From an uncultured Clostridia bacterium (lineage in GTDB: Bacteria; Bacillota; Clostridia; UBA1381): a stretch of DNA of 64,000 nucleotides. The translations under genes and the position numbers were made by a program. The notes below the pieces were generated by a model, which ran no database searches, was not told the origin of the DNA, and was given only the letters and a program-made list of their open reading frames with translations. Positions 16,856 to 62,500 of the stretch are shown one piece after another. The first letter of the stretch is position 1. Every line of letters starts with the position of its first letter. The stretch lies in the NCBI GenBank assembly GCA_947628515.1, contig CANRAG010000002.1, positions 458-64,457 of the forward strand. The letters are read 5' to 3'.

Positions 16856-16874
16856 AATTATCTACCTCCTGTTA

Positions 16875-32041: not shown

Positions 32042-33850
32042 TTATTCAATCGTGAATGTGGCCTTAACATCTGCCGGCGCGCCAAGAAGTATTACCGAAA
32101 ATACCGCGTTGCCGCCTTGCATATTACCTATTTCAAAGGTTTTCTCAAGCGTCTTGTTATCGGTTTCGCTTGTGAAAACGCCCTTAAACGATTTATGTGA
32201 AAGATCCACTGTCACATCCCAGAAATATCCCGCGTTACTGCTATCATCATCTGTCTTTACGACCTCTTTCCGGTCGGATTGGCCTATATCCGGCGTTGCA
32301 GTCGGCTCCGCCGTGGGCGTAGGCGTCGGGGTCGCCTCCGGCCAGCCTGACGCCGGAGGCGGAATCTCGTCCGTCTGATACGCCGTCATAGAATGAATTT
32401 CCCAGTTTACGGTCGTGGGAATCTCCATCACGCCGTCGCCTTCACCAACATTGAAGTCATCACGCTGCGGGATCGCAACAGGCCAGAGCCTGAAATTACC
32501 CGAGCCATAATTCTCAATAGTTGTTAAATCCTTATTGCTGTTTTCGTCTATGCTATAATCCGCTCCGTCATAGCTGTAATAAGTTTTTGCGCATTGTGGA
32601 TTTTTTTCATTGCCGTTTGGTGAGATAATAAAACGCATGGTATGCATTTTATCCTTGTCGGCTTCAACAATCTGCTTTCCCCTCCACGTCATACCATTGA
32701 CTTCACTGATACAGCTTCCCTCATGGGTAAGCTTAAGACCTATATACGGAGACTCTGCTGAATAATCCTCAAGAGAAACTTTAAACCGCACATCAAGCAC
32801 AATATTCTTATTCGTTACAAAGCGTTCGCCCGGAATCTTAAATGTTGTTTTGTATTCGCTCGCTTTCTTTTGCTCAACCTTTATCGGCGCGTCCGACACG
32901 GTTCTCGGCTTGTCCGAATAAACCCTTGTCGCTCCGCCTGTGCCGAAAAATGAAACGTCAATACTGCCCTCCTGCTTGATTGTGCTTATAGAGTCGTCAA
33001 AATATTTTTTATCGCTCAAATTAAGGATATACTCCTTGTCCGTCTCCGACGGGGTCGGCGTCGCCTTCGGCGGCTCGGGTATCTTGTCCGTTTGGTATGC
33101 CTTAAACGAGTGGAATTCCCAATTTACCGGCGTGTCAAGCACAGATCCATCGTCTGTATTATGTTCGTCTCTGCCTCCGCTCGGTATTGATGTCGGCATA
33201 AACCTTAACTGCGCGGTTTCATCATTTTCTGCAACATAGCCCCAGTTTACCGCGGTCTCCGCAACAGCGCCGCCGGTTTTTGTCTTGTAATCCGCGCCGT
33301 CAAGACTGTATTTCACAACGGCTTTTCCATCCTCCTTGCTTAACACATAGCGCATATGATGCAGTGTATCTTTCTCACTCTCCTTGAGCTGAATTCCTCT
33401 CCATTCCATGCCGTCGCAATTGACCAAGTTATTTGATGTGTATAATCTCAGTCCTATATACGGTGACGGCTGAGCATAATCGTCAAGATATACCTTAAAC
33501 TCAATGTCAACTACTGTGTTCTGTGCGGTTGAAAATGCCTTTGCTTCTGTCCAGAAAGTGCCCTTCCAGTCCGACATCTTTTCCTGTTTTACCTTAATCG
33601 GTTTGTCTGTATCCTTCTCCCAATCTTCACAGGTTATGCTTGAACCTTCACCTCCGTAATAGTAGAGATTTGCGCTTCCTTGCTGCGTAGTTGTATTGTT
33701 TGTATGGTTAAAATACTTTGCGTCACTGATATTAAGAATATAATTGGGCTCCTCCGCCGACGCAAACGGAATGTACAGCGAAACGAGCATGGCGGCGCTC
33801 AAAAATGCCGCCAATATTCTTTTACGGTACTTCTGTGTCATGTTTTTCAT
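32042..33850 (-). CDS. Secreted protein: signal peptide, two copies of an unassigned ~220-aa module, PT-rich linker, conserved ~85-aa C-terminal domain
   Basis: 602 aa. Signal peptide ...SLYIPFASAEE. The modules are marked by YILN(I/L)SD.KYF..., ...FKV.L.DY...SPYIGL(R/K)L... and VNWE(F/I)(H/Y)S(F/M).AYQTD. The linker is PEATPTPTPTAEPTATP. By eye about two-thirds identical to residues 1-500 of the 1142-aa protein at 41428-44856. Confidence 0.8.
   Translation of the reverse strand: MKNMTQKYRKRILAAFLSAAMLVSLYIPFASAEEPNYILNISDAKYFNHTNNTTTQQGSANLYYYGGEGSSITCEDWEKDTDKPIKVKQEKMSDWKGTFWTEAKAFSTAQNTVVDIEFKVYLDDYAQPSPYIGLRLYTSNNLVNCDGMEWRGIQLKESEKDTLHHMRYVLSKEDGKAVVKYSLDGADYKTKTGGAVAETAVNWGYVAENDETAQLRFMPTSIPSGGRDEHNTDDGSVLDTPVNWEFHSFKAYQTDKIPEPPKATPTPSETDKEYILNLSDKKYFDDSISTIKQEGSIDVSFFGTGGATRVYSDKPRTVSDAPIKVEQKKASEYKTTFKIPGERFVTNKNIVLDVRFKVSLEDYSAESPYIGLKLTHEGSCISEVNGMTWRGKQIVEADKDKMHTMRFIISPNGNEKNPQCAKTYYSYDGADYSIDENSNKDLTTIENYGSGNFRLWPVAIPQRDDFNVGEGDGVMEIPTTVNWEIHSMTAYQTDEIPPPASGWPEATPTPTPTAEPTATPDIGQSDRKEVVKTDDDSSNAGYFWDVTVDLSHKSFKGVFTSETDNKTLEKTFEIGNMQGGNAVFSVILLGAPADVKATFTIE
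32083..32189. repeat. Direct DNA repeat copy 1 (C-terminal-domain coding segment)
   Basis: A 107-nt stretch that differs at only 2 positions from 33922-34028. Similarity extends over about 32045-32335 vs 33884-34175. Confidence 0.9.
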
Positions 33851-36017: not shown

Positions 36018-36060
36018 TTAGGTATTGATTACTATAATACGGAAACGGAGGTTCATAAGG

Positions 36061-39018
36061 ATGCCCTATCTTGACAATGATATGAAAGCCATAATCAAAT
36101 ATCGTATGGACAGCATCGAAAGCGCCATGTATACCGTCGTCGGCGAGCTTGGTATCACGGCGTACCGCACAAAGGAGCCGGTCCCCTTTTCGGAAAGGAC
36201 GTCCGGAGAGCGGCTTGACCTTAAAATCGGCGACAGCTGGGGCGAAAAGTGGGACTGTGCATGGTTTCGCTTTACCGGGACGGCGCCCGACGGCGACGGG
36301 CGCGAAGCGGCGCTTATTATCGATATAAACGGTGAGCTATGCATTTTTGACGGGCAAGGCTGCCCGATACGCGGACTTACAAATGTCAGCTCGGATTTCG
36401 ATCGCAGTCTCGGAAAACCCGGGAAAAGAATATATCATCTTCCGGCGGGAACGCGGGAAATAGATATATGGGGCGACGCCGGCTGCAACGACCTTTTCGG
36501 GCACCGCAAAGAGAACGCGGCGATAAAGGAAGCGTATACCGCGCTCGTAAACGAGGACGCGCGCGGGCTGTACTATGACCTTGAGGTGCTGTATGAGCTT
36601 ATGGAGCAGCTTCCCGACGACAGCGCGCGCGGAAAAAGCATATTGTGTACAATGTTTGACGCGGTAAGAGAGCTGGACGAGATAAACAGCGAAACGGCGC
36701 GCGCCGCGCGAGCTCGGCTTTGTACGGAGCTTAATAAAAAAGGCGGAACGCCGTCGCTTAAAATTCTTGCGAGCGGACATTCGCATCTGGACCTCGCCTG
36801 GCTTTGGCCTATACGCGAAACAAAGCGCAAAGCGGCGAGAACCTTTGCGACGGCGATTGCCATGATGGAGCGCTATCCCGACTATATATTCGGCGCGACG
36901 CAGCCGCAGGCATACGCGTGGGTAAAGGAGCAGTACCCCGCATTGTACGAGAAGGTTAAGCAAAAGGTCGCTGAAGGCAGATGGGAGCCGCAGGGCGCTA
37001 TGTGGGTGGAGGCGGACACAAACATATCGGGCGGCGAGGCACTTATACGTCAGATAATATACGGCAAGCGGTTTTTCAAGGATGAATTCGGCGCTGATAT
37101 TGACACGCTGTTTCTGCCGGACGTTTTCGGATACACCGGCGCGCTGCCGCAAATAATGAAAAAAACGGGAATTGAGTATTTCCTGACCATAAAGCTTTCA
37201 TGGAATGTATATAACACATTCCCGCACCATTCTTTTATATGGAAGGGCATAGACGGCAGCGAGGTTATCGTCCATATGCCGCCCGAGGGCGTGTATAACA
37301 GTTCCGCGTCGCCGCGCGCCGCGCGTTTTATCGAGAAAAGCTTTATAGACAAGGGGCGTCTTGACGAATGTCTTATGCTTTTCGGCATAGGCGACGGAGG
37401 CGGCGGTCCCGGCATGGAGCATCTCGAACGGCTGAAAAGGGAAAAGAACCTCGACGGAATTGCTCCCATAGAGCAGGAGCCTACAAGTAAATTCTTCAAG
37501 CGGCTTACGCGTGACCGGGACAAGCTCAAAGTCTGGAGCGGTGAACTGTATCTCGAAAAGCATCAGGGCACATACACCACGCAGGCTGTGAGCAAGCTGT
37601 ACAACAGAAGGTCGGAGTACGCGCTGCGGGAGCTGGAATTTGCCGATGTGCTAAGCGGCAGGAGAAGCACGAGCAAGGACAGGCTTGACGATATATGGAA
37701 GGAAGTGCTTTTGTACCAATTTCACGATGTTCTCCCCGGCTCGTCAATAGACAGGGTTTATGACGAATCGCGCGAGCGATGCCGCAAAATACTTACCGAG
37801 CTTGAATACTCAACTGTCGATATATACAATTCGGTTTTTGACAGAGCCGGCGAAGGCTTTACCGCCGTTAACACCGCGCCGTATAGGAGAAGCGAATGGA
37901 TAAAGCACGGCGGGGAATGGTTCTTTGTCACCGTGCCGCCCATGGGATACGCCGCTATAACCGAAGCGGCGAGCCCCGAAAAAGCGGTGTACGCGGCAGA
38001 CAGCACGCTATCTAACGACGAGCTGAAAATCACATTTAACCTTGACGGTACCGTAGCGTCCGTGCTTGACATTAGGACGGGGCGCGAATACATAAGCGGG
38101 GACTCAAATGTTCTGGAGATATACGAGGATAACGGTAACGCGTGGGATTTCAGTATCCTTGCCCGTGACATGGCACGCAAGCGCTGCAAGCTTATAAAAT
38201 CCGAATATTATACGGACGGGCCCGCCGCTGTTTGCGAGCACACATTCGCTGTCGGCAGTTCCGAAATCGTTCAGAAAATTGTTCTGACCCTCGGCTCGCG
38301 CCGCGTTGATTTCGTGACAAGAGTGGACTGGTGGGAAACGCACAAAATGTTAAGAACGTCATTTGCCGCGAACGTCATGACAAATCACGTCACCTGCGAT
38401 ATACAGTTCGGAAACATAAAGAGAACCAATAATACGAACACAATGATAGATACGGCGCAGTATGAGATATGCGCGCACAAGTGGATAGACCTGTCGCAGG
38501 CAGATTACGGCGTGTCCCTGCTTAATAACTGCAAGTACGGACACAGTGTAAACGGCAATATTATGGACATAAATCTGCTTAGAAGCACCACCGCGCCCGG
38601 CGAGACTGCGGATAAGGGAGTTCATGAGTTCACATATTCGTTCTATCCCCACGAGGGCGGCACAAACGCCGGCGGCACAGACGCGGAAGGATATAAACTC
38701 AATATGCCCGTAAGATGCATTGACAAACTGCCGCCAAAAAACAGTTTCTCGTTAGTTAAAACGGATAAAAGTAATATAGTCGTTGAAACCGTCAAGTACG
38801 CCGAGGACGGCGATGATATAATAATCCGCGCATATGAGAACAGCGGCGCCCGCGCCCGCGCGGTGTTCACGCTCGGTATAGATATAGACGGGGCGTATCT
38901 GACGGACATGACGGAGGAAAACCCAAGGCGTATCGACGCGGACAAAAACAGCTTCAGCGTCGATTTCAATCCGTTTGAAATAAACACTATACGCTTAAAA
39001 AAGGCTGTAAATAAATAA
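36061..39018 (+). CDS. GH38 alpha-mannosidase (cytoplasmic type)
   Basis: ILASGHSHLDLAWLWPIRETKRKAARTF is the GH38 metal/nucleophile region, with LFGIGDGGGGP and YLEKHQGTYT also present. The length is about 985 aa. ATG 36061 (MPYLDND) follows GGAGG. The track start at 36025 is an upstream alternative codon. Confidence 0.85.
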   Translation: MPYLDNDMKAIIKYRMDSIESAMYTVVGELGITAYRTKEPVPFSERTSGERLDLKIGDSWGEKWDCAWFRFTGTAPDGDGREAALIIDINGELCIFDGQGCPIRGLTNVSSDFDRSLGKPGKRIYHLPAGTREIDIWGDAGCNDLFGHRKENAAIKEAYTALVNEDARGLYYDLEVLYELMEQLPDDSARGKSILCTMFDAVRELDEINSETARAARARLCTELNKKGGTPSLKILASGHSHLDLAWLWPIRETKRKAARTFATAIAMMERYPDYIFGATQPQAYAWVKEQYPALYEKVKQKVAEGRWEPQGAMWVEADTNISGGEALIRQIIYGKRFFKDEFGADIDTLFLPDVFGYTGALPQIMKKTGIEYFLTIKLSWNVYNTFPHHSFIWKGIDGSEVIVHMPPEGVYNSSASPRAARFIEKSFIDKGRLDECLMLFGIGDGGGGPGMEHLERLKREKNLDGIAPIEQEPTSKFFKRLTRDRDKLKVWSGELYLEKHQGTYTTQAVSKLYNRRSEYALRELEFADVLSGRRSTSKDRLDDIWKEVLLYQFHDVLPGSSIDRVYDESRERCRKILTELEYSTVDIYNSVFDRAGEGFTAVNTAPYRRSEWIKHGGEWFFVTVPPMGYAAITEAASPEKAVYAADSTLSNDELKITFNLDGTVASVLDIRTGREYISGDSNVLEIYEDNGNAWDFSILARDMARKRCKLIKSEYYTDGPAAVCEHTFAVGSSEIVQKIVLTLGSRRVDFVTRVDWWETHKMLRTSFAANVMTNHVTCDIQFGNIKRTNNTNTMIDTAQYEICAHKWIDLSQADYGVSLLNNCKYGHSVNGNIMDINLLRSTTAPGETADKGVHEFTYSFYPHEGGTNAGGTDAEGYKLNMPVRCIDKLPPKNSFSLVKTDKSNIVVETVKYAEDGDDIIIRAYENSGARARAVFTLGIDIDGAYLTDMTEENPRRIDADKNSFSVDFNPFEINTIRLKKAVNK

Positions 39019-39042: not shown

Positions 39043-40173
39043 ATGTTTAACTTAAACGAAGCCGATAGAAAATTCACAGAGGAAATGTGGAGCAAAATAG
39101 ACAATAAGATGAAAGCGGTCGTCCCGCGCACCGTCGGCAAGATACCGTCGAAATCGGAAAACGGAAAATTCGATAATATGGTCGAGAAGGACATTACATG
39201 GTGGACTAACGGATTTTGGCCCGGAATGATGTGGCTTCTGTATGTTGGAACCAAAAACGATATATATAAAAACGCAGCCGAAATCGCAGAGGAGCAGCTT
39301 GACGCGGCATTTTCGGAATACGACCTCCTGCATCATGACGTGGGATTTATGTGGAATATTTCAAGCGGCGTTAATTATCGTTTGTTCGGAGGCAAAAAAT
39401 CAAAAGTGAGAACATCTATCGCAGCCGACATTTTAGCCTCACGCTATAACGCGAGCGGTAAATTTATACGCGCGTGGAACGAGGACAAAGTGGGCTGGGT
39501 AATAATCGACTGTATGATGAATATACCCATTCTGTATTGGGCGAGCAGAGAGTATAACGATCCGAGATTTAAGTATATCGCAATGAACCATGCGGACACG
39601 GTCATGAAAACGCATATCCGCCCCGACGGTTCGGTTAATCATATAGTCAATCTCGACACGGTTACCGGCGAGCCGATAGAATCGTTCGGCGGGCAGGGGT
39701 ACTGTGACGGCTCATCATGGTCAAGAGGTCAGGCATGGGCTATATACGGCTATGTTCTAAGCTATATTCACACGGGTAAGCAGGAGTATCTCGATACCGC
39801 AAAGAGTGTCGCGCACTATTTCATTTCCTGCGTGTGCGGCGACTGGCTGCCGAGAGCCGATTTCAGATGTCCCGACGAGCCGGTTATATACGACTCCACC
39901 GCCGGCGCGTGCGCGGCATGCGGCATGCTTGAGATTGCGCGTTGTGTCGGAGAGCATGAGAAAAAGCTGTATCTAAACGCGGCGCTAAATATCTTAAAGG
40001 CAATGGAAAAAGAATTTTGCTGCTGGGACGATACGGTGGATTCAATCCTCGGCATGGGCACCGGAGCATACCACGAAAGCCCGCAGGAAAGACATACGCC
40101 GATTATCTACGGTGATTACTTCTTCATTGAGGCAATCTATAAATTAAAAGGCTTTGATATGTTGTTCTGGTAA
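39043..40173 (+). CDS. GH88 unsaturated glucuronyl hydrolase-like enzyme
   Basis: 376 aa. WWTNGFWPGMMWLLY, HHDVGFMW and SRGQAWAIYGY are typical (alpha/alpha)6 GH88/GH105 blocks. There is no signal peptide. It starts 24 nt after GH38. Confidence 0.75.
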   Translation: MFNLNEADRKFTEEMWSKIDNKMKAVVPRTVGKIPSKSENGKFDNMVEKDITWWTNGFWPGMMWLLYVGTKNDIYKNAAEIAEEQLDAAFSEYDLLHHDVGFMWNISSGVNYRLFGGKKSKVRTSIAADILASRYNASGKFIRAWNEDKVGWVIIDCMMNIPILYWASREYNDPRFKYIAMNHADTVMKTHIRPDGSVNHIVNLDTVTGEPIESFGGQGYCDGSSWSRGQAWAIYGYVLSYIHTGKQEYLDTAKSVAHYFISCVCGDWLPRADFRCPDEPVIYDSTAGACAACGMLEIARCVGEHEKKLYLNAALNILKAMEKEFCCWDDTVDSILGMGTGAYHESPQERHTPIIYGDYFFIEAIYKLKGFDMLFW

Positions 40174-40401: not shown

Positions 40402-41394
40402 TTAGTCATAGCAAAACTCCTGATGCGTTTTAATAAACTCAACAAGCTCGTCAACCTGCGTGTATGCCATCGCGACCACGGTGTCCGCAGCTCCGTAGTA
40501 AATGGCAATTCTGCCCGTGGGCGCGTCGCATAGCGCCGCGCACGGGAATACCACGTTTGGAACGTCGCCCACGCACTCATACTGTGTGCGCGGCGCGAGC
40601 AGGTACGGTTTAGCTCTGTACTTAACCTTCCACGGCTTGTCCGCGTCAAGAATAGCCGCGCCCATACTGTAGTTTAAACCCTGACAGGTTTCCAATACGC
40701 CGTGGTAGAAAAGCAGCCAGCCTTCTCTTGTTTCGATGGGGATAGGGCCTGCGCCAATTTTTACCCAGTCCCACGCGCTGTCCGGCGACATAACATGCCT
40801 GTGTCTGCCCCAGAATGTCATGTCGGGACTTTCACTGTAGAAAATATCGCCGAAATTAGTATGTCCGTTATCACTCGGACGGCTTAGCATGGCGAAGTTG
40901 CCGTTTATCCGCTTCGGGAACATTACCCCGTTTCTGTTACAGGGCAGAAACGCGTTTTCAAGCTGGTAAAACTTATCAAAATCGAACGTGTACGCCACTC
41001 CGATTGTAGGGCCGTGATAGCCGTTACACCATGTCACGTAATATCTGTCCTCGATAAAACACACTCGCGGATCATAACCGAAAACAAAATTATTTATCTC
41101 GTCGTTATCGCTTATGAACTTAATCGGATTGGGTTTTATCTCCCAGTTAATTCCGTCGCTGCTCCTGCCGCAGTACAGCTTCTGCACGCGGCATGTGTCA
41201 TCGCTTCTGAACACCCCGCGAAATTCACCCTTATACGGCACGACAGCGCTGTTGAATATGCTGTTGGAATTTTTTATCGCATCCCGCGTTATGATGGGAT
41301 TTTTCGAGCTTCGCCACACAACGTCGGTACAGCCTTTGGGTCTGTCCTCCCACGGCATGTTCTCGATTGCGCTGCCTATTATCATATTGCTCAT
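40402..41394 (-). CDS. GH130 beta-mannoside phosphorylase/hydrolase-like enzyme
   Basis: [61 protein letters not shown] and YSMGAAILD show the typical 5-bladed propeller GH130 pattern. ATG 41394 is the likely start; the track's 41412 is TTG. Confidence 0.8.
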
Positions 41395-41427
41395 ACCGAT
41401 TAATCCTTTCAATTCTTAATGTTTCTG

Positions 41428-44400
41428 TTATTGTTCAAGCCCAAATACGTCTGAAATCGGCGTCATCGATTTCGCGCTGTCCCACACGAACGCTTTCGCG
41501 GTACAGCCGCTGAGTCCGTCCGTGTTCAAGCTGCCCTTAAACGCGGTCTTTGTCAGACTCTCTCCGTCAAACTCCTTAATCTCCACATCGACCAGCCTGC
41601 CGCTTTCATCATAGAGCGCTACCGCCAGCGCGGCATGTTTTGAAACGGACGGGTGGTCGTTACGAACTCTTACGGCATAGTCTGCCGTATCACCCTTTAT
41701 GTCAAGCGTGCCGGAAACAATACGCAATGTGTCGTCGTCGTTTAGCTTGTACATCTTTATATAGTCAAAGTTCCAATATACCGATGTAACGAGATCCGTC
41801 TCCGCGTCGCCGTCGTTTGACATATTATCGTCAGCGGGACATACGTTCATATATAGTCTTATTCCGTTTTCAAATAACGCGTTTGTATTAAGGTTGTCGC
41901 ATTTGAACTCGTTTATAAGCCTTCCGTCCGATATTGTATAAACCTTGCCGGTTACGGGGTCTATAACAAATTTCACCGTGCGATAGCCGTCGTCAGCTCC
42001 GGGCGTATATATCTCCGCGCTGACATTTGAGTTGGCGTAAATATTGAAATTGGTCAGAGCCAACGCCAGACGCGCCTTCGGCGAAGCGCCCGTTTCGTAG
42101 TCGTCAAGCGTCACCTTGTATCTTGACTCTATCACAATGGGCTTGTCTATCGCTATAGTTGCGGGCGCGGGCGTAAGGACTTGGAGATACCCGCCCCAGA
42201 TCGACTTCTTCTGCTGTCTTACAATAAAGACATCGCTTGTGCTGCCCGACATTACGCCCGACGTCGAATTGAGCATTCCGCCGCCTTCCGTTATCGCTCC
42301 CGCTTGATCGTTTACCGTTATATTATCGTCTATATCCAGAATATATGAGTCCGCTATAAACGGTTTTTCCTCGGCCTCCGCTATGACATTTGTCGAAACC
42401 GTCTCTCCCGCCTCTATCGGGGTGGGAACACCGTCAACATTTGCCCACACCGTTATATCCGACGGATTGTACAGCTTTACTCCGTCCGGCGCGTTTGTTA
42501 CGGTAAGCTGACGGCACGCCGTTACGTAATCGACAAGCTCTATTGTAGTCGGATTCCATATGGTATCGCTGTTGTCCTCAAGATATTTGGCAAATATCTC
42601 GAACTTATCCCATATATCGCCTCTCGGCTCATCCTCATCCGCGCTAAACTGCCAGGCGTGACCGGCAAGGAAAAGCATCTTCCATTCGGACGAGGCGTCC
42701 AGAGCCTTAAACTCATCCATGAATTTCTCGGTCGTTCCGTTTTGCCAATCTCGTTCCACAGACACCCAACCTGTCGGGTTCAAATCATAGAAGCTTGCCG
42801 GAACATCATATTTACCGGTCATTATGCAGTTTCTCGCGTATCTGTAGCCCACGCTCTGAATTATGCCGAGCCTTACAGGGTCCGACGACGCGCTGCACGC
42901 GTACGGGTACGCCAATCCGCCTATCGGGCTGCCCCAATTGTTATCAAGCGTTGTTTTGGATAGCTCCAGTTCTCTTAAAAACTCGTCGTTGGTCGCCTCG
43001 TCAAGCTGAGGATGAGTGTTGCTGTGCGATGCAACCTCCATGCCGGCATAGTATTCTTTTAAGTTCTCCAAAGTTCTGGGCGCGTAATTGCCCGGTACTA
43101 TATTAAATGTGGCCTTTGCATTATGCCGACGGAGAATTTCTATCGCTTTCAAATCTTGGTCAACACACCAGTCAGCGCCGTCGTCAAGGCTTATCACCGC
43201 CGCCTTCATCTTACCGTCCGGGTACGCTCTTACTATACTGTCTTTGAGTTCGGACGGGATCGGTACCGCTGTCGGAACGGGGTTTGCCGTGGGATATTCC
43301 TCATTATCCGTGCCCGTGATCGGGTCGGGAATATCATCCGTCTGATACGCCGTCATAGAATAAATTTCCCAGTTTACGGTCGTGGGAAGCTCCGCCGTGC
43401 CGTCGTCCGTGCCAACGTTAAAGTTCTCGCCGTTCTCGCCTCTGTCTTTCGGGATTGCAACAGGAGCCAATCTGAAGTTCAAACCGTCTCCGCCGTCGTC
43501 ACTCTGCCCGTAATTAGCTATTGTTGTAAGATCCTTCTCGCTTCTGTCCTCAATAGAATATGCCGCTCCGTCATAGCTATAGTAAATTCTCGCGCAGTTC
43601 GGGTTTGTTTCGTTGCCGCTTGACGCTATAACGAACCGTACCGTATGCATTTTATCCTTTTCCTTTTCGGTAATCTGCCTGCCCTTCCACGTCATACTGT
43701 TCGTTTCGTTGATATAAGTCTTTTCGTGGAACAGTTTAACTCCCACAAACGGTGAGTCCTTTGTATAGTCCGCAAGCGAAACCTTGAACTTCACATCGAG
43801 CACGATATTTTTATCGGTTGTGAAGCCCTTTCCCGGGATTTTGAATACGGTTTTATATTCGCTCGCTTTCGTTTGCTCAACCTTTATCGGCTCGCTCGAC
43901 ACGGTTCTCGCGGCGTCCGAATATACTCTTGTCGCCCCTGTCGTGCCGAAGAAGGAAACCGTTTCGCTGCCGGTCTGTGAAATCGTATTGTTCGTATCGT
44001 CAAAATATTTTTGGTCGCTCAAATTAAGGATATACTCCTTGTCCGCCTCCGACGGGTCCGGCGTCGCCTTGGGCGGCTCGGGCTCCTCGTCCGTTTGGTA
44101 TGCCTTAAATGAGTAGAATTCCCAATTTACCGGCGTGTCAAGCGGAGTTTCTCCATCTACTATTTCGCCGTCTCTGCCCACGCTCGGCAAGGACACAGGC
44201 ATAAATCTTAGCATCGCCGTGTCGCCTCCGTCACCGTCACGTCCCCAGTTTTCCGCGTCCGCCGGAATAACGGGATCGCTTATAACGGTCGTTTTATAGT
44301 CCGCGCCGTCAAGACTGTATTTTATGGCCGCGTTACCGTCGCCGTCTTTGGAAAATACATACCGCATATGATGACGCTTATCCTTCATGCCGCTTGTGAG

Positions 44401-44856
44401 CTTCATACCGCGCCATTCCATGCCGTTACAATTTATGTAATTATTTTTCGTATACAGTCTTAATCCAACATACGGCGACGGCTTGGAATAGTCGTCAAGG
44501 TATACCTTGAACTCGATATCGACCACGGTATTCTTGTCAACGGAAAAATTCTTCGCCTCCGTTTGGAACGCGCCTTGCCAGTCCGACATGATGGTTTGAG
44601 TTACTTTAATCGGCTCGTCGGATACCTTATCCTGGCCGTTTGAGGTTATACTGGATCCCGGGCCTCCGTAATAGGATAAATCCGCACTGCCATCCTGCGT
44701 GGTTGTATTGTTTGTATGGTTAAAAATCTTTGCGTCACTGATGTTAAGAATGTAGTCACCGTCAACGGCGAGAGCCGCAAGCGGCGTGAATGCGGAAATA
44801 AGCATTGCCGCGCCCACCAATGACGACAATATTCTCCTACCGTATTTTTGTGTCAT
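41428..44856 (-). CDS. Secreted 1142-aa protein: two N-terminal unassigned modules (paralogous to the 602-aa protein), CE4 polysaccharide deacetylase (NodB) domain, a third divergent module, C-terminal Ig-like domain
   Basis: Signal peptide ...FTPLAALAVDG. The CE4 motifs are VISLDDGADW (TFDDG-like), ASHSNTHPQL (H-S/T-x-x-H) and LAYPYA. The third module is marked by YKVTLDDYETGASP...VYWNFDYIKMYKL. The C-terminal region is ...LAVALYDESGRLV...AKAFVWDSAKSMTPI. Confidence 0.8.
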   Translation of the reverse strand: MTQKYGRRILSSLVGAAMLISAFTPLAALAVDGDYILNISDAKIFNHTNNTTTQDGSADLSYYGGPGSSITSNGQDKVSDEPIKVTQTIMSDWQGAFQTEAKNFSVDKNTVVDIEFKVYLDDYSKPSPYVGLRLYTKNNYINCNGMEWRGMKLTSGMKDKRHHMRYVFSKDGDGNAAIKYSLDGADYKTTVISDPVIPADAENWGRDGDGGDTAMLRFMPVSLPSVGRDGEIVDGETPLDTPVNWEFYSFKAYQTDEEPEPPKATPDPSEADKEYILNLSDQKYFDDTNNTISQTGSETVSFFGTTGATRVYSDAARTVSSEPIKVEQTKASEYKTVFKIPGKGFTTDKNIVLDVKFKVSLADYTKDSPFVGVKLFHEKTYINETNSMTWKGRQITEKEKDKMHTVRFVIASSGNETNPNCARIYYSYDGAAYSIEDRSEKDLTTIANYGQSDDGGDGLNFRLAPVAIPKDRGENGENFNVGTDDGTAELPTTVNWEIYSMTAYQTDDIPDPITGTDNEEYPTANPVPTAVPIPSELKDSIVRAYPDGKMKAAVISLDDGADWCVDQDLKAIEILRRHNAKATFNIVPGNYAPRTLENLKEYYAGMEVASHSNTHPQLDEATNDEFLRELELSKTTLDNNWGSPIGGLAYPYACSASSDPVRLGIIQSVGYRYARNCIMTGKYDVPASFYDLNPTGWVSVERDWQNGTTEKFMDEFKALDASSEWKMLFLAGHAWQFSADEDEPRGDIWDKFEIFAKYLEDNSDTIWNPTTIELVDYVTACRQLTVTNAPDGVKLYNPSDITVWANVDGVPTPIEAGETVSTNVIAEAEEKPFIADSYILDIDDNITVNDQAGAITEGGGMLNSTSGVMSGSTSDVFIVRQQKKSIWGGYLQVLTPAPATIAIDKPIVIESRYKVTLDDYETGASPKARLALALTNFNIYANSNVSAEIYTPGADDGYRTVKFVIDPVTGKVYTISDGRLINEFKCDNLNTNALFENGIRLYMNVCPADDNMSNDGDAETDLVTSVYWNFDYIKMYKLNDDDTLRIVSGTLDIKGDTADYAVRVRNDHPSVSKHAALAVALYDESGRLVDVEIKEFDGESLTKTAFKGSLNTDGLSGCTAKAFVWDSAKSMTPISDVFGLEQ

Positions 44857-44914: not shown

Positions 44915-47788
44915 TTACTGATAATTTTTGATTACAAGAATTTGCCTCGGCGCGCCGTAGTCGGAGCTTACAAACACCAAATCGTTCGGTTCAATATCGT
45001 TTATCCCTTTAAGCTCTACCTCTTTGCGCTTTGCGTCGTACCAATAAACATTGGTGGAGCCTGCGCCGTACACGCCAATCTTGGTTATCCACAGCTTATC
45101 GCTTGTTATGCCCGACTCGGTCGTTATACCCGGAGCCTTGTAGTAGTCGCCCTGGTTCGTGCTGTTTTCATCTATGCCTATAACCATTGAGTTGGCTCCT
45201 ACCTCCTTGACAATTCCGACGGTACGCTCGTATACGACCGAACTCTGGCTTGTGCCCATCAGAGACTGCCTGGAAAGATTTAGCTTTGAGTAATCGCAGC
45301 GGCTGTCGAAAATTTCACTCGCGCCAACCACATTGTTCCTGTTGTCATACTCTATCTGCCATACGTCGCCCTTGTCTATCTTATCTGCCTTTTCCTTGTT
45401 TTCGTCGTATTCCATGGTGTATACTACCGGCTTACCCATAACGTAGCCCGAAATTTCCGTAACGATCGTTCCCTCGTCGTTAACGCTCGTTTGCACTCCC
45501 GAAACTATAACGCAATCGCTGTCATAATACGAAACGTCCTTTACCTTTGTGCTGACGGATGCCGCGCCGGGGAATATAACCATTATCGAAGCCACATTAC
45601 AATATGAGATATTATACGCCGCGCAGTCGTACTGACGATTGTGTACAAGGTTTGACGAGCCGGTCTTTACCTGCCAGCTTCTTTCGTCCGCGGATGACAA
45701 ATCAAATATCATAACATCATCCGCCGGAATGAAATCGGTAAAGAATGTCCTGAAGCATCTTCTTATCCCGCGCACGCCCGGTCCGGCGTCGCCCGCGGTA
45801 TTTGTATATGTGCTCAGAATACCGACATTCATACGGTCTATGGTTACGTCTACGCCGCTTTTTATATCATTGCCGGTATAGTTCCAGTTATTATATACGG
45901 TCGGCGTTATGATTTGCGAAACCTCATTCTTTTCGTTAATCTTGTAAGCTATGAGCCGGTTTTGCATAGCCTGACCGCCAAGAGTGTCAAAAACCTTCAT
46001 CGCGTCGGTCGATTTGCCGTTAAGCGTCAGTCTTGACGCCAATTTCAGCTTTTCCACCAATTCGGTATTCTTTCTGAACATTTTTACCAGCACCGTTTCG
46101 CCGTCGTCGTCTATCGCGCCCTTCATGAGGATCGCATAGTCATACGCCGAAGAATCCACGGTGTACGCCGCTACCTTGCCGTTCGCGTCAAGATAGAGAG
46201 TACCGGTGTATCCGGTCTTTAAGTCTACGAGGTTGGCGCGCGGAACTATTTCGTAAACGGTATCGTTTATCCTGATTTCATCATCGCTAAAGGATGTTAT
46301 TGTTCCGCTTACCTTTTCGGTCGAAATATGTATATCCGCGTATTGCTCGCCGCGTATGTTCCTGCTTCTTGCCACCGATATTACAATTTCGGGTTTTATT
46401 CCGGCTGCGGTAGTTTCCGTGCCATCCTTAAAATATCTGTACTCCGTGCCGTCCTCCAAATCGATTGGGGAATATCTCGTGCTCGCGTCATTGGTTATTA
46501 CGGCGCTGTTACTCATCGGGTCCGTTACGTCGGAAACAAATATTCTGCCTTCCTCCGAGTTTACGCTTCGGACTACGTATGTTTCATAACTGTTTATGAA
46601 CAAAACGTCATATGTGCCGTTGCCGTCACTGTCAAGCAGACGCATATCCGTCGAATAGTCCGCAAACGAGCCAAAATCGATGTTGCCTATAATATCCTCA
46701 TAAACACCGTTTACAATAACCGGCGCGTTGTCGGCCATGCTGGCTGTTTTTTGCTTTGAGCTGTCGTGGACGTAGTAGCGCAGTCTGTTCCCGCTAAAGC
46801 TCTCAAAATCGCTGTACGCGATTGAAATTACGGTATTGTCGCTCTCTTTCTCAAGAACGTACAGTATCTTCATTTCGTCCATCTCATAGTAGCAGGTCAC
46901 GCGCTTGCCGAGCATATCCTCGCCAATCAGCCCGTCGTCCGTATAAATCTCGCTGTCTATTTTAACGCCGTTCTCGCCCACATCCGAAGCCTCGCTGTAG
47001 AGTCCTGTTCTTTCCAGCGCCGTAATATGGCCTGTAACCTTTTCCACGTTAAAATACTTGTTTAAAAGATTTTCGCCCTTTTGTATTTCATAATCTTCAT
47101 CGCATATATCCGTTTCAAGGGCGTTGCACACCATTACCGCCGCCTGTTCCTTTGTTACCGTCGAATTCTCGTTAAGCGATACGTAACGGCCAAGCTCCAA
47201 ACTCGCCGCCGTGCTTATGTACCCGTCCGGATAGCCCCCGGCGTATTCGGCATAAACCGAATAGCCCAGAACAGTGACAAGCACCTTCATCATATCTCTG
47301 TATACCACCGGCTCGTTAGGCCTGAACGTTCCGTCGTCATAACCGGTCATAATGCCGAGATCGGATATAAACTGTACGGTGGCGTAGTTTTTATCATCAA
47401 ATCCGACGTCGCTGAATTTCTGAACTCTTACCTCCTGTGCCGGAGCGATAAGCGCCGAGCCCATCCATTCCGTGTTTATCGTCTGACCGTTTGCCGACTC
47501 GACAGCGGCGCTGCCGTCCGCGTTTACCGTTCCTTTCAGGTTAAGCATACCCAACGCAATCCCGGCAAGATCCCCGCGTGTGATTATGGTATCTCCTTCA
47601 AATTCCATGCTCTCGCTTATTTGCATAATATTGAGCATTGTGCACATTTCTATTGCGGGCTTAAACCTGCTCGTGTCGGTATCCTGCGGCATTTCTGTTG
47701 AGAACGCTGACACGGGAATACACGATGCCGCAACGGAGAATACCGCCACAATCGCCGCGATGATATTCTTCTTCATTCTTATAATCAT
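44915..47788 (-). CDS. Cell-surface protein with N-terminal SLH repeats and a long uncharacterised beta-rich body
   Basis: 957 aa. A signal peptide is followed by FSDVGFDDKNYATVQFISDLGIMTGYDDGTFRPNEPVVYRDMMKVLVTVLGY (canonical SLH) and flanking SLH-like repeats. I recognise no catalytic motif in the remainder. Confidence 0.7.
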   Translation of the reverse strand: MIIRMKKNIIAAIVAVFSVAASCIPVSAFSTEMPQDTDTSRFKPAIEMCTMLNIMQISESMEFEGDTIITRGDLAGIALGMLNLKGTVNADGSAAVESANGQTINTEWMGSALIAPAQEVRVQKFSDVGFDDKNYATVQFISDLGIMTGYDDGTFRPNEPVVYRDMMKVLVTVLGYSVYAEYAGGYPDGYISTAASLELGRYVSLNENSTVTKEQAAVMVCNALETDICDEDYEIQKGENLLNKYFNVEKVTGHITALERTGLYSEASDVGENGVKIDSEIYTDDGLIGEDMLGKRVTCYYEMDEMKILYVLEKESDNTVISIAYSDFESFSGNRLRYYVHDSSKQKTASMADNAPVIVNGVYEDIIGNIDFGSFADYSTDMRLLDSDGNGTYDVLFINSYETYVVRSVNSEEGRIFVSDVTDPMSNSAVITNDASTRYSPIDLEDGTEYRYFKDGTETTAAGIKPEIVISVARSRNIRGEQYADIHISTEKVSGTITSFSDDEIRINDTVYEIVPRANLVDLKTGYTGTLYLDANGKVAAYTVDSSAYDYAILMKGAIDDDGETVLVKMFRKNTELVEKLKLASRLTLNGKSTDAMKVFDTLGGQAMQNRLIAYKINEKNEVSQIITPTVYNNWNYTGNDIKSGVDVTIDRMNVGILSTYTNTAGDAGPGVRGIRRCFRTFFTDFIPADDVMIFDLSSADERSWQVKTGSSNLVHNRQYDCAAYNISYCNVASIMVIFPGAASVSTKVKDVSYYDSDCVIVSGVQTSVNDEGTIVTEISGYVMGKPVVYTMEYDENKEKADKIDKGDVWQIEYDNRNNVVGASEIFDSRCDYSKLNLSRQSLMGTSQSSVVYERTVGIVKEVGANSMVIGIDENSTNQGDYYKAPGITTESGITSDKLWITKIGVYGAGSTNVYWYDAKRKEVELKGINDIEPNDLVFVSSDYGAPRQILVIKNYQ

Positions 47789-47814
47789 TTAATTTCTCCT
47801 AAGTCTATCCGCGC

Positions 47815-49559: not shown

Positions 49560-50966
49560 TCATATACCCACATGCGTACCGTCACACACAACCGCATCGG
49601 TAAGCGGGTAGTTTGCGCTGTCCCATACCATATATTTTATAATCTGTTGTTCCTTGTCGGCAACCGTAATTTCGGGCAGTGTAACGGCTGTTTCACCGGC
49701 GGGAAGCGTAACTGTCTTTTCCGCCTTCCCGACAAACATATAGCCCGTATCACTCTTATTGTACAGCGCCGCGATAACTCTTACTTCCTGCCCTTCCGCC
49801 GCGCTTTTAAGCTTCATTTCACCGGTTACAGTTCCTTCTTCCAAAGCCGCGCCGCAGCTTAACGTCACGGGCGCGTCGGCGTCGGCATATACCACCGATT
49901 CTATTATAGGCCTTTTTTCGGTTGTAAACTCTATGCCCACCGGCGCCGCGTTGCTAAACCCGTATTGATCCTTAACCGACGACAGGAAAGTCAGACTGTA
50001 CCTCGTGAAATATTCAACCAATCCCGCAGGATAAACAGTGCATACGTTCGGCTCAAACATCATCGGAATTGCCGTCAATTTCTCGCCTGTAGCCTCGTTT
50101 GTCATCTCTACGGACGTATCGTTAATCGTGTCCGTATCCATATCACAGTCAAAGGAAACGGTGTACGGTCCGCTCACGCTTGCGCCGAAAGAACCGTCCG
50201 TCGGGTCGGATGAGCCTATTCCGTAAGGTGAAATCTGGTATACCTTTATATAGTCGAAATCCCATATTATAGGCGTAGCCAGCGCGACGTTTCCGTCGTC
50301 GTCGCCGTAGTCGAGAACAGTCTTGTTATTTCCCGACTTCATATATTCTCCGTCGGCGTTTTTACCGGCGAGCGGCCTCGGATAGAACTTTATCTGCGAT
50401 ATGTCGTTCTCACCCAGAGCGGCAAACGCCGTTGTTGTTATAAGCTCGTCATTTCTGAATTCCGTAATTTCCTTTGTTACCGGATTTATGACATACTTAA
50501 TCGTATATTCACCTCCGTCAACAGGCAACGTTCGCTTCTGCGATTCACCTTCCCCGGCAAATACGCTTGAACCTGCCGTTACCTGCATACCGTATGTGAA
50601 TGTCGGAATATAATCGTCAACCGTGTCGTCCTGCAGCGTCACGGTAAACTTTGTTTCAAGTACCGTGCAAAGCTGCTCGCCGCTTGCGGCAAACGCCGAC
50701 GGTCTCAATGTCTGCATATTAACCTTATAAAAAGAATAATTCCCGCTTATAAGCTTAAAGCTCTCTTTGTTTTCCGCAACCTCTATCGACTGGTTCGCGG
50801 TCAACACGCAGTTCATTTCATAGTCCCCGTCCGTGAGCTTCGGGGAGGCAAATGAAATGTTATTGTCTATAGTCAGACACTCAATATTTCCCGCGCTCAC
50901 CGGTGCGGGCGAAATAAACATCGCCGCAGCGGCGGCCAATATTGCAGTCGCAAAAAATTTTCGCAT
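49560..50966 (-). CDS. Secreted protein with one unassigned module, an Ig-like domain and the AALY...VWDS C-terminal domain
   Basis: The signal peptide MRKFFATAILAAAAAMFISPAPVSAGN starts at ATG 50966 (or 50972); the long track ORF from 51110 overlaps the upstream gene. The module end is ...TPIIWDFDYIKVYQI. The C-terminal region is ...VRVIAALYNKSDTGYMFVG...IIKYMVWDSANYPL. Confidence 0.7.
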   Translation of the reverse strand: MRKFFATAILAAAAAMFISPAPVSAGNIECLTIDNNISFASPKLTDGDYEMNCVLTANQSIEVAENKESFKLISGNYSFYKVNMQTLRPSAFAASGEQLCTVLETKFTVTLQDDTVDDYIPTFTYGMQVTAGSSVFAGEGESQKRTLPVDGGEYTIKYVINPVTKEITEFRNDELITTTAFAALGENDISQIKFYPRPLAGKNADGEYMKSGNNKTVLDYGDDDGNVALATPIIWDFDYIKVYQISPYGIGSSDPTDGSFGASVSGPYTVSFDCDMDTDTINDTSVEMTNEATGEKLTAIPMMFEPNVCTVYPAGLVEYFTRYSLTFLSSVKDQYGFSNAAPVGIEFTTEKRPIIESVVYADADAPVTLSCGAALEEGTVTGEMKLKSAAEGQEVRVIAALYNKSDTGYMFVGKAEKTVTLPAGETAVTLPEITVADKEQQIIKYMVWDSANYPLTDAVVCDGTHVGI

Positions 50967-51033
50967 AAACATCTTTCCTTTCAGGTGATTGCCGCAAGCG
51001 GAGAAGCGCCTCCGCCTGCGGCAAATTGTTAAA

Positions 51034-55144: not shown

Positions 55145-55165
55145 TCTGATTCGCTTCTCCCTTCG

Positions 55166-56131: not shown

Positions 56132-56154
56132 ATTAACCCCTGAATAAATTATAT

Positions 56155-57753: not shown

Positions 57754-58005
57754 GGGATGCCTCCTCTTTCTTATTGTAACCGGCAATATAAGCCGATAAG
57801 TCTTTTTATTATGATATAATAATATTAACATACCTGTCAGCTTAATGTAAACGTCAGCAATTTAACGTTATAAGACAAAATTAAATGTTGTTTGGCGCTC
57901 TTTAAGTCGTTTTCCAACCAAATAACATCATAATTACAGTTTGCATTGCTTTTTTGAAAATCCCGCTGTATAATAAAAGAAATAAAAATATCAGGAGGTA
58001 ACAAT

Positions 58006-59579: not shown

Positions 59580-62500
59580 TCAGTTTTGTTCTCCGGTCAC
59601 GTCCAGATATGTCTGATAATATCTGTGTCCAAATTCAATCTGACCTACCGCGCTTATATGGGTATAGTCATTTTGCCATACCGCCGTATCGTTTTGGTAA
59701 GCGGTACTCTCCGCGCGTGATAGCAGCGGCGTCGGGTCGGTCGATGACGCAAACCCCATATTCGGGATATGGCCGAGTTCTTCCCGCACTCTCGCGTTGT
59801 GTATCACATACGCCGATCGGTTTGTCTCGCTTAGTCCTCCCAATATGAGCGGAACCTCCGGAGCGTCCAAAGCGGCGCGCAAATCATAGACCAAATTTCG
59901 CAAACGTCTCGGATAGGACGCGTCCTGCGCGTCGGACTCACCCTGATGCCATAGCAATCCTTTAAACTCCGCGTCGCCGGAAAGAGCCTGCTTCATACGT
60001 TCGATAGTATTGGCATACCCGTTTACGACATCTTTGATTTTATCATCCTTTGCCGCGTCCTTCTCATAAGAGAGAATAGACGAGCCGGAGGACGACTGTA
60101 CAACCAGTCCTATATTAATATCCGGGTTTGCTGCGGCTGTATCCTCCGCAAATTGATAGCCCATGTTGATACCGAACTGCGGTCCCACATTATCGCTTGC
60201 GTCCGACCAGCCTATATACGGATATTCGGTGCCAATGCCGTTTACTCCGGAATAACGCCGATACGGATGCTGCGCCTGTTCAAAATTGCCCTCTTTATTG
60301 AGAAGCTTCACATTGTCTGAAATCGGGATGTCCACGCCCTCCGCCACGGGGTTGTTCGTGCCGGACATATTGGACTGCCCTATCATCAGATACACATATG
60401 TGGACGGCTTCACCTGCGCTCTTACAGAACCGACTGTAAGTCCGTCTTTTTGAGCCGTTATTACGGCAAAGCCTTCGGATTTCGCCGTTACGCTTCCGCT
60501 CTCGTCCACCGAAGCAACCCGTGGATTGGAACTTGTCCATATAACATCCGCCGCGGCAGCGGTAAGCTGCCCTTCTCCGTGCATTGGCAGGAACAGGTTT
60601 TGCATCTGAAGTCCCTGTCCTCCTCCAAACCGAACAGGACGGCACAACGGTCTTTGGCTGTCGGCTGTCCACAGATATGCCGCCAGTGTTCCATCATTTC
60701 CAAAATCATCCGGAAGCTTGACGCTCGCGCTAACCGGTTCAAACTCCGCTTGCGCTGTCGCCTTTGCGGCGGCGGCCGAAATCAGCCGACCGTCTTTATA
60801 CGCGGCAAGGATAAGCGTTACATCTTTCTCGTCCACAGCGTCCTTTGCCGAAATCTCAGCCCGCGCGTATACGCTGCCGCCCGGTACAATTCCGGTTAAC
60901 GGTTTTGTCATATCCGAATCCTCGTACAGTCCCAAATTACGCGTTACAATATCGGTTTTAATCGCTACGGTCTTGGTTTTACTGCACTTACCCAATCTGT
61001 CGGATGCGGATAGAACAATGTTTCCGTCGGCTATTTCCGGCGAAATACGCAGCGTCCGGCCGTGTATCGACGCAGCATCTTCCGCCGCTCCCGACACCGT
61101 CCAGACAATGCCCTCCGGATTTGCCGGATTGGTATCGCCGTCTTTGTCCGTGAACACTGCGGGCAGTTTGTACTCCAACGCCTCCGCCGGATTGATTTTA
61201 TCGGGTACATCACTCAAATCAATATCCGTGACTTCGGTGTACGAAACGGTCATATTATTCAATATGCCCTGTGTTTTGGCGTCCTTTATAAGTACCGTGT
61301 TGTATTTAACATAACGCGCGTCGGTAGTTGGCAGATAATATACCTGACGACCGCCATATTCCGGCAGCCCTCCCGCGTAAATATCGGTAATCGGCGTATA
61401 TTGCAATCCGTCCCGTGACGCGGAAACGGAAAAGCTCATAACCGAAGAGGGATCGTGCTCCAAAACAATCTTGTTGAACTTTGCCTGTTTTCCCAGATCC
61501 AGTACAGTGCCATCGAGCTGGTTCACATCGCTGTCGCCCACTCCGGTTTCGTAAAGAGCCGACTGCCATGCGCCGGAGCTGGCGGGAGCCTCCAACGGCG
61601 TGCCCTCTTTTGGCTCCTCCGTCTCCTCCTCACCGATAGAACGCTTTATTTCAAAGAAATCGTATGTCCATGTTACCGTCGTGCCCAAATCCTGCGCGTC
61701 GGTATTGCTCTTGCCCTCCGGCTGCACAACCGGGTAGAAAAGAATTTTTTCAAACCGTTCGAGGTCCGTGGAGAACTTGGCGGATGCTATCTGCTGCCCG
61801 TTCAATTTCCCCGTTATTGTGCCGGCGTCGGGGTCTATAACATATACAAGCGTCTGGTCTATGTTCTCCGCGTCCGCGGAAAGCGGGATATTCCCCGTCA
61901 TATCCAGGAACTGGTTCGTCGGCGCCCAATAAACCAGCGTCATCTTCGCTGTAGTGCCCTTACTGTAATCATCCGCTTTAATTCGGAACTTTATGGTAGC
62001 GGTAATGGGCTTATCCAGCAAAATCGGCTGTGGGTCCGTAACCTGAAGTCTCTGCTGGTACGCGGAGGACAGGGATTGCTTTACCTCGAATTTATCATCG
62101 TCCTCAATCAGCTTCTGCGAGAAATTTTTATCGGTACCGGCATTGTAGTACTCATGCAAAATTGCGCCGACAGACTCCGTCTGCGTAAGAGTGGCGTTTT
62201 TAAATGACATATTCTTGTCAATTAACAGCCGATCGTTTCCGGGTACGTAAGGCGTGGCTGTCGGCTCCTCTCCCTCTCCCACGGCGGTTACTTTAAAATA
62301 ATCGATTGTCCATGTGATAGGCGTTACGAGCTTTTCCGTATTCTCGCCCGTGCCCCCGTTTGTGTTCTGGGCTATGAGCTGGAACATAAGCGTGCCGAGA
62401 TTGGCAACCCTTGCAGGGTCATATGAACTGCTGTAACATTCCGCTCCGTCCAGGGTCGCCGTGACCGTGTGTACGGTAGGATTTATGGTGTAGATTAAAT

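Follow-up and report, generated by a model that had tools for sequence, protein, structure and literature searches.

A protein module of about 210-240 residues was found in nine copies in four secreted proteins, here called A, B, C and D, which are encoded in a 64,000-nucleotide stretch of contig CANRAG010000002.1 from an uncultured Clostridia bacterium; this whole stretch is referred to as the window. The module is read as a non-catalytic glycan-binding jelly roll, in effect an unclassified carbohydrate-binding module (CBM) within the concanavalin A (ConA)-like superfold, and its ligand as most likely xanthan or a xanthan-like exopolysaccharide (EPS). Taken as a whole, this reading is held with somewhat better than even confidence.

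A hidden Markov model (HMM) of the family, searched against the whole 64-kb window translated in six frames, detected exactly nine copies (Table 1). An earlier note, made from the DNA letters alone, had counted at least nine copies in four proteins, three in A (two N-terminal and one behind the CE4 domain), two in B, three in C and one in D, and the HMM envelopes agreed with this distribution. No further copies or pseudogene copies were detected in any of the six reading frames. The four motifs singled out in that note (YILNISD or VDKQTSYGWDN; FKV.L.DY....P; Y.IDP; W.FDY.K.Y) were also seen in the alignment of the nine units. BLASTP cross-matches among the different module proteins had E values of 3e-5 to 4e-9 in a 39-protein database. 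Four subtypes, the N-terminal A/B type, the A3 type, the C type and the D type, were described by separate HMMs that included orthologues from other organisms. Each subtype HMM detected the other subtypes (Z = 1e6), and hhalign comparison of the subtype profiles resulted in probabilities of 96-99.4% and E values of 4e-9 to 5e-21 over about 190-198 columns, at a pairwise identity between subtypes of only 15-27%. Module A3 bridges the A/B subtype and the C and D subtypes (BLAST E values of 4e-9 to C3 and 1e-6 to D1). Hidden diverged copies were searched for in the two halves and the tail of a 625-residue protein, in the 957- and 578-residue SLH proteins, in the PL35-like protein and in the tails of A, C and D; none was found, the hhalign probability being at most 7% for every part.

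The module remained unassigned, as it had been in the earlier note: no Pfam, NCBIfam or significant PDB sequence match was obtained, even with a profile of 50 sequences (Pfam copy of 2025, NCBIfam and PDB of 2026). Against PDB chains, neither the 9-sequence nor the 50-sequence profile gave a match at E<0.4, the best E value being 0.43. A one-by-one Pfam scan of 50 members returned sub-threshold matches only, to Laminin_G_3 in three of the 50 (best E 0.0017), to DUF6081 in two and to galectin in one. PF13385 (Laminin_G_3) had no match in the four window proteins at E<=0.1 and did not reach its gathering threshold, PF06439 (DUF1080/CBM66) had no match in the 50 members even at E<=5, and tblastn of one module against plasmids gave no match. 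The jelly roll is common to the module and the Laminin_G_3/ConA-like clan (PF13385), the module pattern W.T..Y.IDP......Y.(D/N)G resembles the LamG core, and the LamG-like repeats of the database protein P0028 are matched by the module profile as well, but the PF13385 matches fall short of the threshold set for that family.

When 1.84 billion cluster representatives were scanned exhaustively with HMMER, 46 proteins matched, 33 of which hold a near-full-length copy or a clear fragment, and the rest a short repeat or LamG-like motif. P0016, P0020, P0026, P0028 and similar proteins were rejected as members, since they match only profile positions of about 120-165, many times per protein, as expected of repeat or LamG-motif cross-matches. 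With 46 matches, 33 of them genuine, in a collection of this size, the family is very rare. About 79 module instances from about 38 proteins were collected, a count that includes the four proteins of the window as well as close orthologues obtained by a word-index search; the database entry P0047 is protein A itself. No published description of the module was found in the xanthan and PL35 literature. Judged by its sequence against Pfam, NCBIfam, PDB and the literature, and not against the current CAZy list of CBMs, the module is a probable new CBM-type family. The novelty lies in the rare sequence family; its kind, a ConA-like accessory module of CBM type, is well known and unsurprising in principle.

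The fold was predicted with AlphaFold2 for residues 463-676 of C, a stretch of 214 residues whose numbering is used below. With 50 diverse copies as input the model had a predicted local distance difference test (pLDDT) value of 93.6, a predicted template modelling score of 0.89 and 15 predicted strands; it superseded a mediocre model made from the nine window copies only (pLDDT 69.7). Foldseek comparison with the PDB gave 362 matches at E<=1e-3. The best 50 of the 362 were all ConA-like jelly rolls and included the N-terminal subdomain of the botulinum neurotoxin receptor-binding domain (BoNT Hc-N), a sialidase, legume lectins, the bean alpha-amylase inhibitor, GH16 and PL7/PL36 enzymes. These 50 had a probability of 1.0, yet template modelling (TM) scores of 0.45-0.51, identities of 8-15% and root-mean-square deviations of about 5-6 Å. 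The clostridial neurotoxin subdomain (5LR0, 3N7K), at the top of the matches listed with E values of about 1e-7 and probability 1.0, has 12-15% identity, a TM score of 0.45-0.48 on the query and an unrelated context, and the likeness is one of fold only. In the model the module is clearly a ConA/LamG-type jelly roll of two-sheet topology; no solved structure is closely related. The lectin/LamG-type jelly roll suspected in the earlier note was borne out by the high pLDDT, by the ConA-like Foldseek matches and by the sub-threshold Laminin_G_3 matches. The confident model, together with clear boundaries and linkers, describes a discrete and independently folding unit, as is characteristic of CBMs.

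Across the 50 aligned copies, only G30, L190 and W196 are near-invariant, and Q60, S64, K91, Y97, P101, G153, T192 and D199 are conserved at 74-88%. Position 152 is Asp or Asn in 98% of the copies. Positions 89 and 91, which alternate along one strand, are Lys or Arg in 82% and 88%, respectively. Position 66 (Tyr or Trp) is aromatic in 90%, position 60 is Asn or Gln in 80% (Gln in 78%), and both are near K/R89 and K/R91 in the sequence. These basic and aromatic positions suggest recognition of a carboxylated glycan. No invariant Asp, Glu or His was observed among the 50 aligned copies. The GH16 motif ExDxxE is not positionally conserved: 7 of 79 modules have it, and these do not have it at homologous positions. 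The catalytic set of PL7 is Arg/Gln/His/Tyr, and residues of this type can be assigned in the module by sequence position only (Q60 in 78%, R172 in 56%, Y174 in 50%, His at 134 in 34%); none of them is invariant. The conservation pattern thus probably fits a binding module and not a catalytic domain.

These observations bear on the possibility that some copies are catalytic, the best candidates being those of B and D, as members of an unrecognised ConA-fold endo-glucanase or lyase family. The superfold is shared with GH16, PL7 and the DUF1080 "xanthanase", and in Foldseek GH16 glucanases and PL7/PL36 alginate lyases were level with the lectins (TM about 0.5, for instance to 1MAC, 1GBG and 5ZQI). 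Q60, Y/W66, K/R89, K/R91, R172 and Y174 loosely resemble the PL7 set. A 23.7-kDa ConA-like DUF1080 protein from Thermogutta terrifontis has been reported to have weak endo-xanthanase activity (PMC10881899). The module, however, has neither the invariant acid, base or His nor the positionally conserved motif of such enzymes, and no DUF1080 Pfam match; as many as four divergent copies stand in tandem in one protein, their number varies among orthologues, and the module is always accessory to recognisable catalytic or surface-protein domains. In the earlier note the modules had been given the place of a missing endo-acting depolymerase. This argument fails because a PL35-like lyase candidate is encoded within the locus at 51034-54231, and the binding-type architecture of the module proteins and the lack of a conserved catalytic signature speak against it as well. 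A backbone glucanase of family GH5 or GH9 was not found in the window by Pfam scans, and because the locus has no recognisable backbone glucanase a small probability of catalytic copies is retained; catalysis by any of them is regarded as quite unlikely. A slimmer chance still is given to the more specific idea that the enzyme-free protein B, and perhaps D, are founders of a new ConA-fold family of endo-acting depolymerases for xanthan or xanthan-like EPS, the copies on the esterases being inactivated, binding-only derivatives. If this were true, B and D would fill the place of the absent GH5 or GH9 xanthanase.

The fusion of the modules to CE4 and SASA esterases, also described in the earlier note, was confirmed by matches to PF01522 in A and PF03629 in C. 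The translated CE4 domain of A has the motifs SLDDG and HSNTH, which provide the Asp-His-His metal motif; an Arg is not apparent in motif 3 (AYPY). In A-like proteins two or three modules are followed by CE4, a further module and a C-terminal beta domain, and in C-like proteins three or four modules by F5/8C, Big_2 and SASA domains. P0009 combines three modules with CE4, F5/8C and SASA. B-like proteins consist of two modules and a small C-terminal domain, P0008 of three modules and a C-terminal beta domain, and D-like proteins of a module, Big_5 and a C-terminal domain. PL8 precedes a module and a C-terminal domain in P0022, P0023, P0030 and P0038, and in P0012 it has an additional module in front. 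The modules are present in one to four tandem copies with Pro/Glu/Thr-rich linkers between them. Copy number varies among close orthologues: A has 2+1 modules and P0001, P0048, P0049 and P0050 have 3+1, while C has three and P0052 and P0004 have four. The fusion partners are thus three unrelated catalytic domains (CE4, SASA, PL8), and some carriers are without a recognised catalytic domain. As is typical of CBMs, the module occurs within carbohydrate-active enzymes, with CE4 and SASA in the window and with PL8, CE4 and SASA in homologues. The tandem copies, their variable number and their attachment to three different catalytic domains argue for a binding role.

Instead of binding a substrate glycan, the modules could act as structural spacers, mediate protein-protein contacts or anchor the proteins to the wall polymer of the cell itself, assembling secreted enzymes with SLH proteins into a surface complex. 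Two SLH proteins are indeed conserved between module-bearing genes, B and its 625-residue neighbour have a common C-terminal domain that resembles an interaction or anchoring tag, and the closest of the Foldseek matches listed, the Hc N-terminal subdomain of botulinum toxin, is to our knowledge not itself a sugar binder. Spacers are, however, usually small Ig-like domains, and the module proteins already contain domains of this kind, Big_2 and Big_5. The exposed-looking basic and aromatic positions, kept across copies of 15-25% identity, fit a shared ligand better, and the module accompanies CE4, SASA and xanthan-lyase-like PL8 across organisms, tracking substrate over partner protein. A role as spacer or anchor is therefore considered unlikely.

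The ligand was approached through the enzymes that accompany the module. The PL8 parts of P0012 and P0022 matched xanthan lyases with E values of 1e-170 to 1e-183 (Bacillus sp. GL1, 1J0M/2E24; Paenibacillus nanensis, 6F2P), compared to 1e-102 to 1e-123 for chondroitin AC lyase and about 1e-87 to 1e-94 for hyaluronate lyases. Xanthan, named as a possible substrate in the earlier note, fits well with these fusions. The best PDB match of the GH88 enzyme in the window is the unsaturated glucuronyl hydrolase (UGL) of Bacillus sp. GL1, a xanthan degrader (1VD5, E 7e-57). The enzyme set for xanthan comprises a lyase, GH88, GH38, GH3 or GH94 and acetylesterases (PMC10881899; bioRxiv 10.1101/2021.06.02.446819; PMC12827396), and GH88, GH38, GH3 and two acetylesterases of the window match the published pathways. 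Activity-raising xanthan-binding modules, namely CBM84, a CBM66 and unclassified ones, are typical of xanthan lyases and xanthanases (PMC10881899; PMC11002231). Because of the PL8 fusions, the synteny of the related loci, the GH88 kinship and the enzyme set, the ligand is read as xanthan or a xanthan-like acidic, acetylated EPS.

The 1065-residue PL35-like protein is the lyase candidate of the window itself. It matched the PL35 lyases 8KHV (E 3e-48), 8KHW (4e-40) and 9O3Q (2e-36) in the PDB, has an N-terminal Cu_amine_oxidN1 domain, known from surface proteins, and a C-terminal CBM32 (about 1e-16 to CBM32 chains), and is kept at 48-72% identity in all related loci. The sole 4-linked uronic acid linkage of xanthan is that between mannose and glucuronic acid (Man-beta-1,4-GlcA), and we know of no report of xanthan-type side-chain lyase activity for PL35. 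A xanthan-lyase-like role on the side chains is plausible for this protein. The PL35 family cleaves at 4-linked uronic acids with a broad substrate spectrum, and its characterised members are glycosaminoglycan (GAG) lyases (PMC12088678, PMC11262172).

The specificity of the PL35 enzymes is one of several points that agree with binding of a glycan that is not xanthan-like, either another acetylated mannose/glucuronic acid polymer, such as a fungal or plant glucuronomannan or an acetan-type EPS, or a host GAG. The GH130 enzyme is nearest to beta-1,4-mannoside phosphorylases (best PDB match UhgbMP, 4UDG, E 2e-159), the window has a GH63/MGH1-like enzyme, and neither PL8 nor a xanthanase is present in it. 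The PL8 fusions are nevertheless much nearer to xanthan lyases than to GAG lyases, and no sulfatase or hexosaminidase was observed among the Pfam-scanned open reading frames (ORFs; all but six in the left, non-glycan part). GH38 and GH88 with GH3 or GH94 and acetylesterases are, moreover, the known xanthan set (PMC10881899). A ligand of this other kind is judged somewhat unlikely, though credible.

Several points weigh against the reading of the module as a binder of xanthan or a xanthan-like EPS. Neither PL8 nor a GH5 or GH9 xanthanase was found in the window by Pfam scans, the GH130 and GH63-like enzymes are not needed for canonical xanthan, and the true substrate may be a different polymer of mannose, glucuronic acid and glucose. 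At 210-240 residues the module is large for a CBM, and the putative basic binding face is proposed from sequence positions and not from clustering in three dimensions. ConA-like folds also include enzymes, among them GH16, PL7 and the DUF1080 protein with weak endo-xanthanase activity (PMC10881899).

Comparable accessory beta-sandwich modules on secreted xanthan-acting enzymes are CBM84 of Paenibacillus nanensis PXL and PspXan9 and of Microbacterium MXL and MiXen, CsCBM66 of the Cohnella xanthanase and the unclassified terminal module of PXL. CBM66 is ConA-like and binds lyase-treated xanthan (PMC11002231; PMC10881899). There is no sequence kinship between the module and CBM84: the alignments of P0012 and P0022 with 6F2P are confined to PL8 (chain residues 3-762 and 3-751), and the module profile misses the CBM84-containing xanthanase structure 6FHN, as no PDB match at E<0.4 was obtained. 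In contrast to the CBM84 and CBM66 modules, the present module is larger, is found in up to four copies and is mainly located on acetylesterases. RuGH5a, the xanthanase of R. UCG13, likewise has tandem lectin-like modules in a xanthan locus of gut Clostridia, with three uncharacterized or CBM11-like domains, and its action on the polymer depends on these modules (bioRxiv 10.1101/2021.06.02.446819; PMC10881899). They, however, sit on a GH5, which was not seen among the Pfam-checked part of the 46 matches. The esterases of R. UCG13 are SGNH enzymes (PMC10154613). Identity of the present locus with the published R. UCG13 locus was rejected, since the esterases here are CE4 and SASA.

The function of the module can be pictured as follows. 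Tandem copies would provide a multivalent, high-avidity hold on a viscous, acidic, O-acetylated heteropolysaccharide, possibly via the basic/aromatic face. The likeliest ligand would be xanthan or a xanthan-like EPS with a beta-1,4-glucan backbone and Man-GlcA-Man side chains. The modules would keep the CE4 (A) and SASA (C) acetylesterases on the viscous, helical polymer, and in other species a xanthan-lyase-type PL8 would be held likewise. The enzyme-free proteins B and D may serve as glycan-binding or capture proteins at the cell surface. De-acetylated and lyase-trimmed oligosaccharides would be imported and finished inside the cell by GH88, GH38, GH3 and GH130 together with phosphomannomutase.

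Table 1. Module copies, esterase domains and genes of the glycan-utilisation locus (positions in the window)
Feature	Position	Strand	Remarks
Module A1	44074..44766	-	A residues 31-261 (HMM envelope); 65% identity to B1
Module A2	43321..44046	-	A residues 271-512; 69.5% identity to B2
Module A3	41725..42357	-	A residues 834-1044
Module B1	33071..33754	-	B residues 33-260
Module B2	32354..33043	-	B residues 270-499
Module C1	62910..63539	-	C residues 35-244
Module C2	62262..62891	-	C residues 251-460; 58.6% identity to C1
Module C3	61617..62243	-	C residues 467-675; within the modelled stretch (463-676)
Module D1	50220..50894	-	Residues 73-297 of the 516-residue ORF; followed by Big_5
CE4 polysaccharide deacetylase core of A	42838..43212	-	A residues 549-673; PF01522, E 3e-13
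SASA-type acetylesterase domain of C	59604..60398	-	C residues 1082-1346; PF03629, E 7e-35
Phosphoglucomutase/phosphomannomutase	27537-29273	-	
GH3	29351-31645	-	
Protein B, 602 residues	32042-33850	-	Two modules
625-residue unknown protein	33881-35758	-	
GH38 alpha-mannosidase	36025-39018	+	Predicted intracellular finishing enzyme; Pfam
GH88 unsaturated glucuronyl hydrolase	39043-40173	+	Predicted intracellular; Pfam, PDB 1VD5
GH130 mannoside phosphorylase	40402-41412	-	Predicted intracellular; Pfam, PDB 4UDG
Protein A, 1142 residues, CE4	41428-44856	-	Three modules
Two SLH-domain cell-wall-anchored proteins	44915-49551	-	Between D and A; Pfam SLH; synteny in L002, L003, L005, L009
Protein D, module and Big_5	49560-51110	-	516 residues as longest ORF
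PL35-like lyase, 1065 residues	51034-54231	-	PDB matches; Pfam
ABC importer: two permeases and 558-residue solute-binding protein (SBP)	54263-57831	-	Pfam; adjoins module-bearing genes elsewhere too
GH63/MGH1-like enzyme	58006-59517	+	
Protein C, 1353 residues, Big_2 and SASA	59580-63641	-	Three modules

The glycan-utilisation locus begins at about 27.5 kb and takes up the rest of the window, with nearly all genes on the minus strand, and the left part of the window contains housekeeping and anaerobic redox genes. The presence of SLH and Cu_amine_oxidN1 domains points to a Firmicute of the Clostridia. Neighbours of the module proteins are SLH-anchored proteins, the secreted PL35-like lyase and an ATP-binding cassette (ABC) importer. 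A typical signal peptide starts all four module proteins, provided that for D an internal start at M47 or M49 is used. The longest ORF of D (start at 51110) begins 77 bases within the upstream PL35-like gene, which runs to 51034. The true start of D is likely M47 or M49 (50972 or 50966), which would give the signal peptide MRKFFATAILAAAAAMFISPAPVSA; D orthologues have 458-488 residues. Of the extent given for D in the earlier note, the range to 50966 was upheld, as it encodes a 468-residue product that starts with MRKFF and has a normal signal peptide, and the length of 516 residues was not, being that of the longest ORF. The 957-residue protein at 44915-47788 has a single SLH match and nothing else annotated, and is conserved (55-61% identity) at the syntenic place between D and A. 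The GC content is lower at 16000-20000 (0.43, about 0.50 elsewhere), and a 629-residue ORF in this stretch (16875-18764) is without a Pfam match and adjoins an Exo_endo_phos protein.

The gene order of the window is kept in the related loci L002, L003, L005 and L006. In L004 a gene for PL8 with a module lies beside an AraC regulator and orthologues of the SBP (64% identity), the permeases (71-74%) and the 1065-residue PL35-like protein (48%) of the window. L008 has the gene order of L004 by Pfam annotation, with GH88 in addition. In L009, which stems from the sample that also gave L004, a module and Big_5 protein, two SLH proteins, GH130 and a three-module protein follow. In L010 an A-like CE4 gene adjoins genes for AXE1, SASA, GH28, GH94 (of cellobiose-phosphorylase type) and a GH42-like protein. 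Across L004, L008 and L009, in other uncultured Firmicutes, a conserved cassette of xanthan-lyase-like PL8 with module, AraC, GH88 (not in all), SBP, two permeases, PL35-like protein, module with Big_5, two SLH proteins and GH130 was observed. Together with L010, it appears to represent a separate kind of xanthan-like utilisation locus that has not been described so far. In L001 (680-2456), from a metagenome-assembled genome of an uncultured Clostridia bacterium in GTDB, fragments of 60-340 residues, 67-85% identical to the SBP, PL35-like, CE4 and GH130 genes, lie within about 1.8 kb; they represent a decayed locus copy or else result from misassembly.

Two further C-terminal domains recur in the locus. 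A beta domain of about 100 residues with the pattern "...ALYD..G.L...(40 aa)...KAF.WD....P" is present at 41431-41724 in A, at 49563-49900 in D and at about 60640-60930 inside C. It stands after the last module in A, in D and in the CE4 and PL8 homologues. The copy in A had no significant Pfam match; homologue P0011 had a weak match to DUF7490 (E 0.0018), below the cut-off. The C-termini of B (32045-32290, minus strand) and of the 625-residue protein (33884-34123) have a common domain of about 80 residues (80% identity, BLASTP E value of 2.6e-33), which follows a Pro/Thr linker, is without a Pfam match and may be an anchoring or interaction tag. P0044 (175 residues) has a different signal peptide followed by the last strand of B2 and this domain at 100% identity, which suggests that a related strain carries a variant formed by recombination or deletion. 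The 625-residue protein is secreted and has no PDB sequence match and only a weak match to DUF6081 (ConA-like). It seems to consist of two other jelly-roll-like halves, ending in YFDNFRLYRYE and IMLDDVSIKSD, which hhalign did not relate to the module. Near the C-like gene in L007 lies a homologue of 34% identity. The 625-residue protein is another candidate for the backbone-acting function lacking in the locus.

If the module is a binding module, as we favour, it would found a new CBM family, in a field where xanthan-type specificity has so far been held by CBM84, one CBM66 member and some unclassified modules. The modules would be useful for engineering xanthan-modifying enzymes; swapping of xanthan-binding modules has been reported to improve xanthanases (PMC10881899). 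The conserved cassette of PL35-like protein, multi-module CE4 and SASA esterases, SLH proteins, ABC importer, GH88, GH38, GH130 and, in some species, xanthan-lyase-like PL8 in uncultured Clostridia differs from the published xanthan loci of R. UCG13 and Bacteroides intestinalis, and would widen the picture of which organisms degrade food-additive and microbial gums, and by what means.

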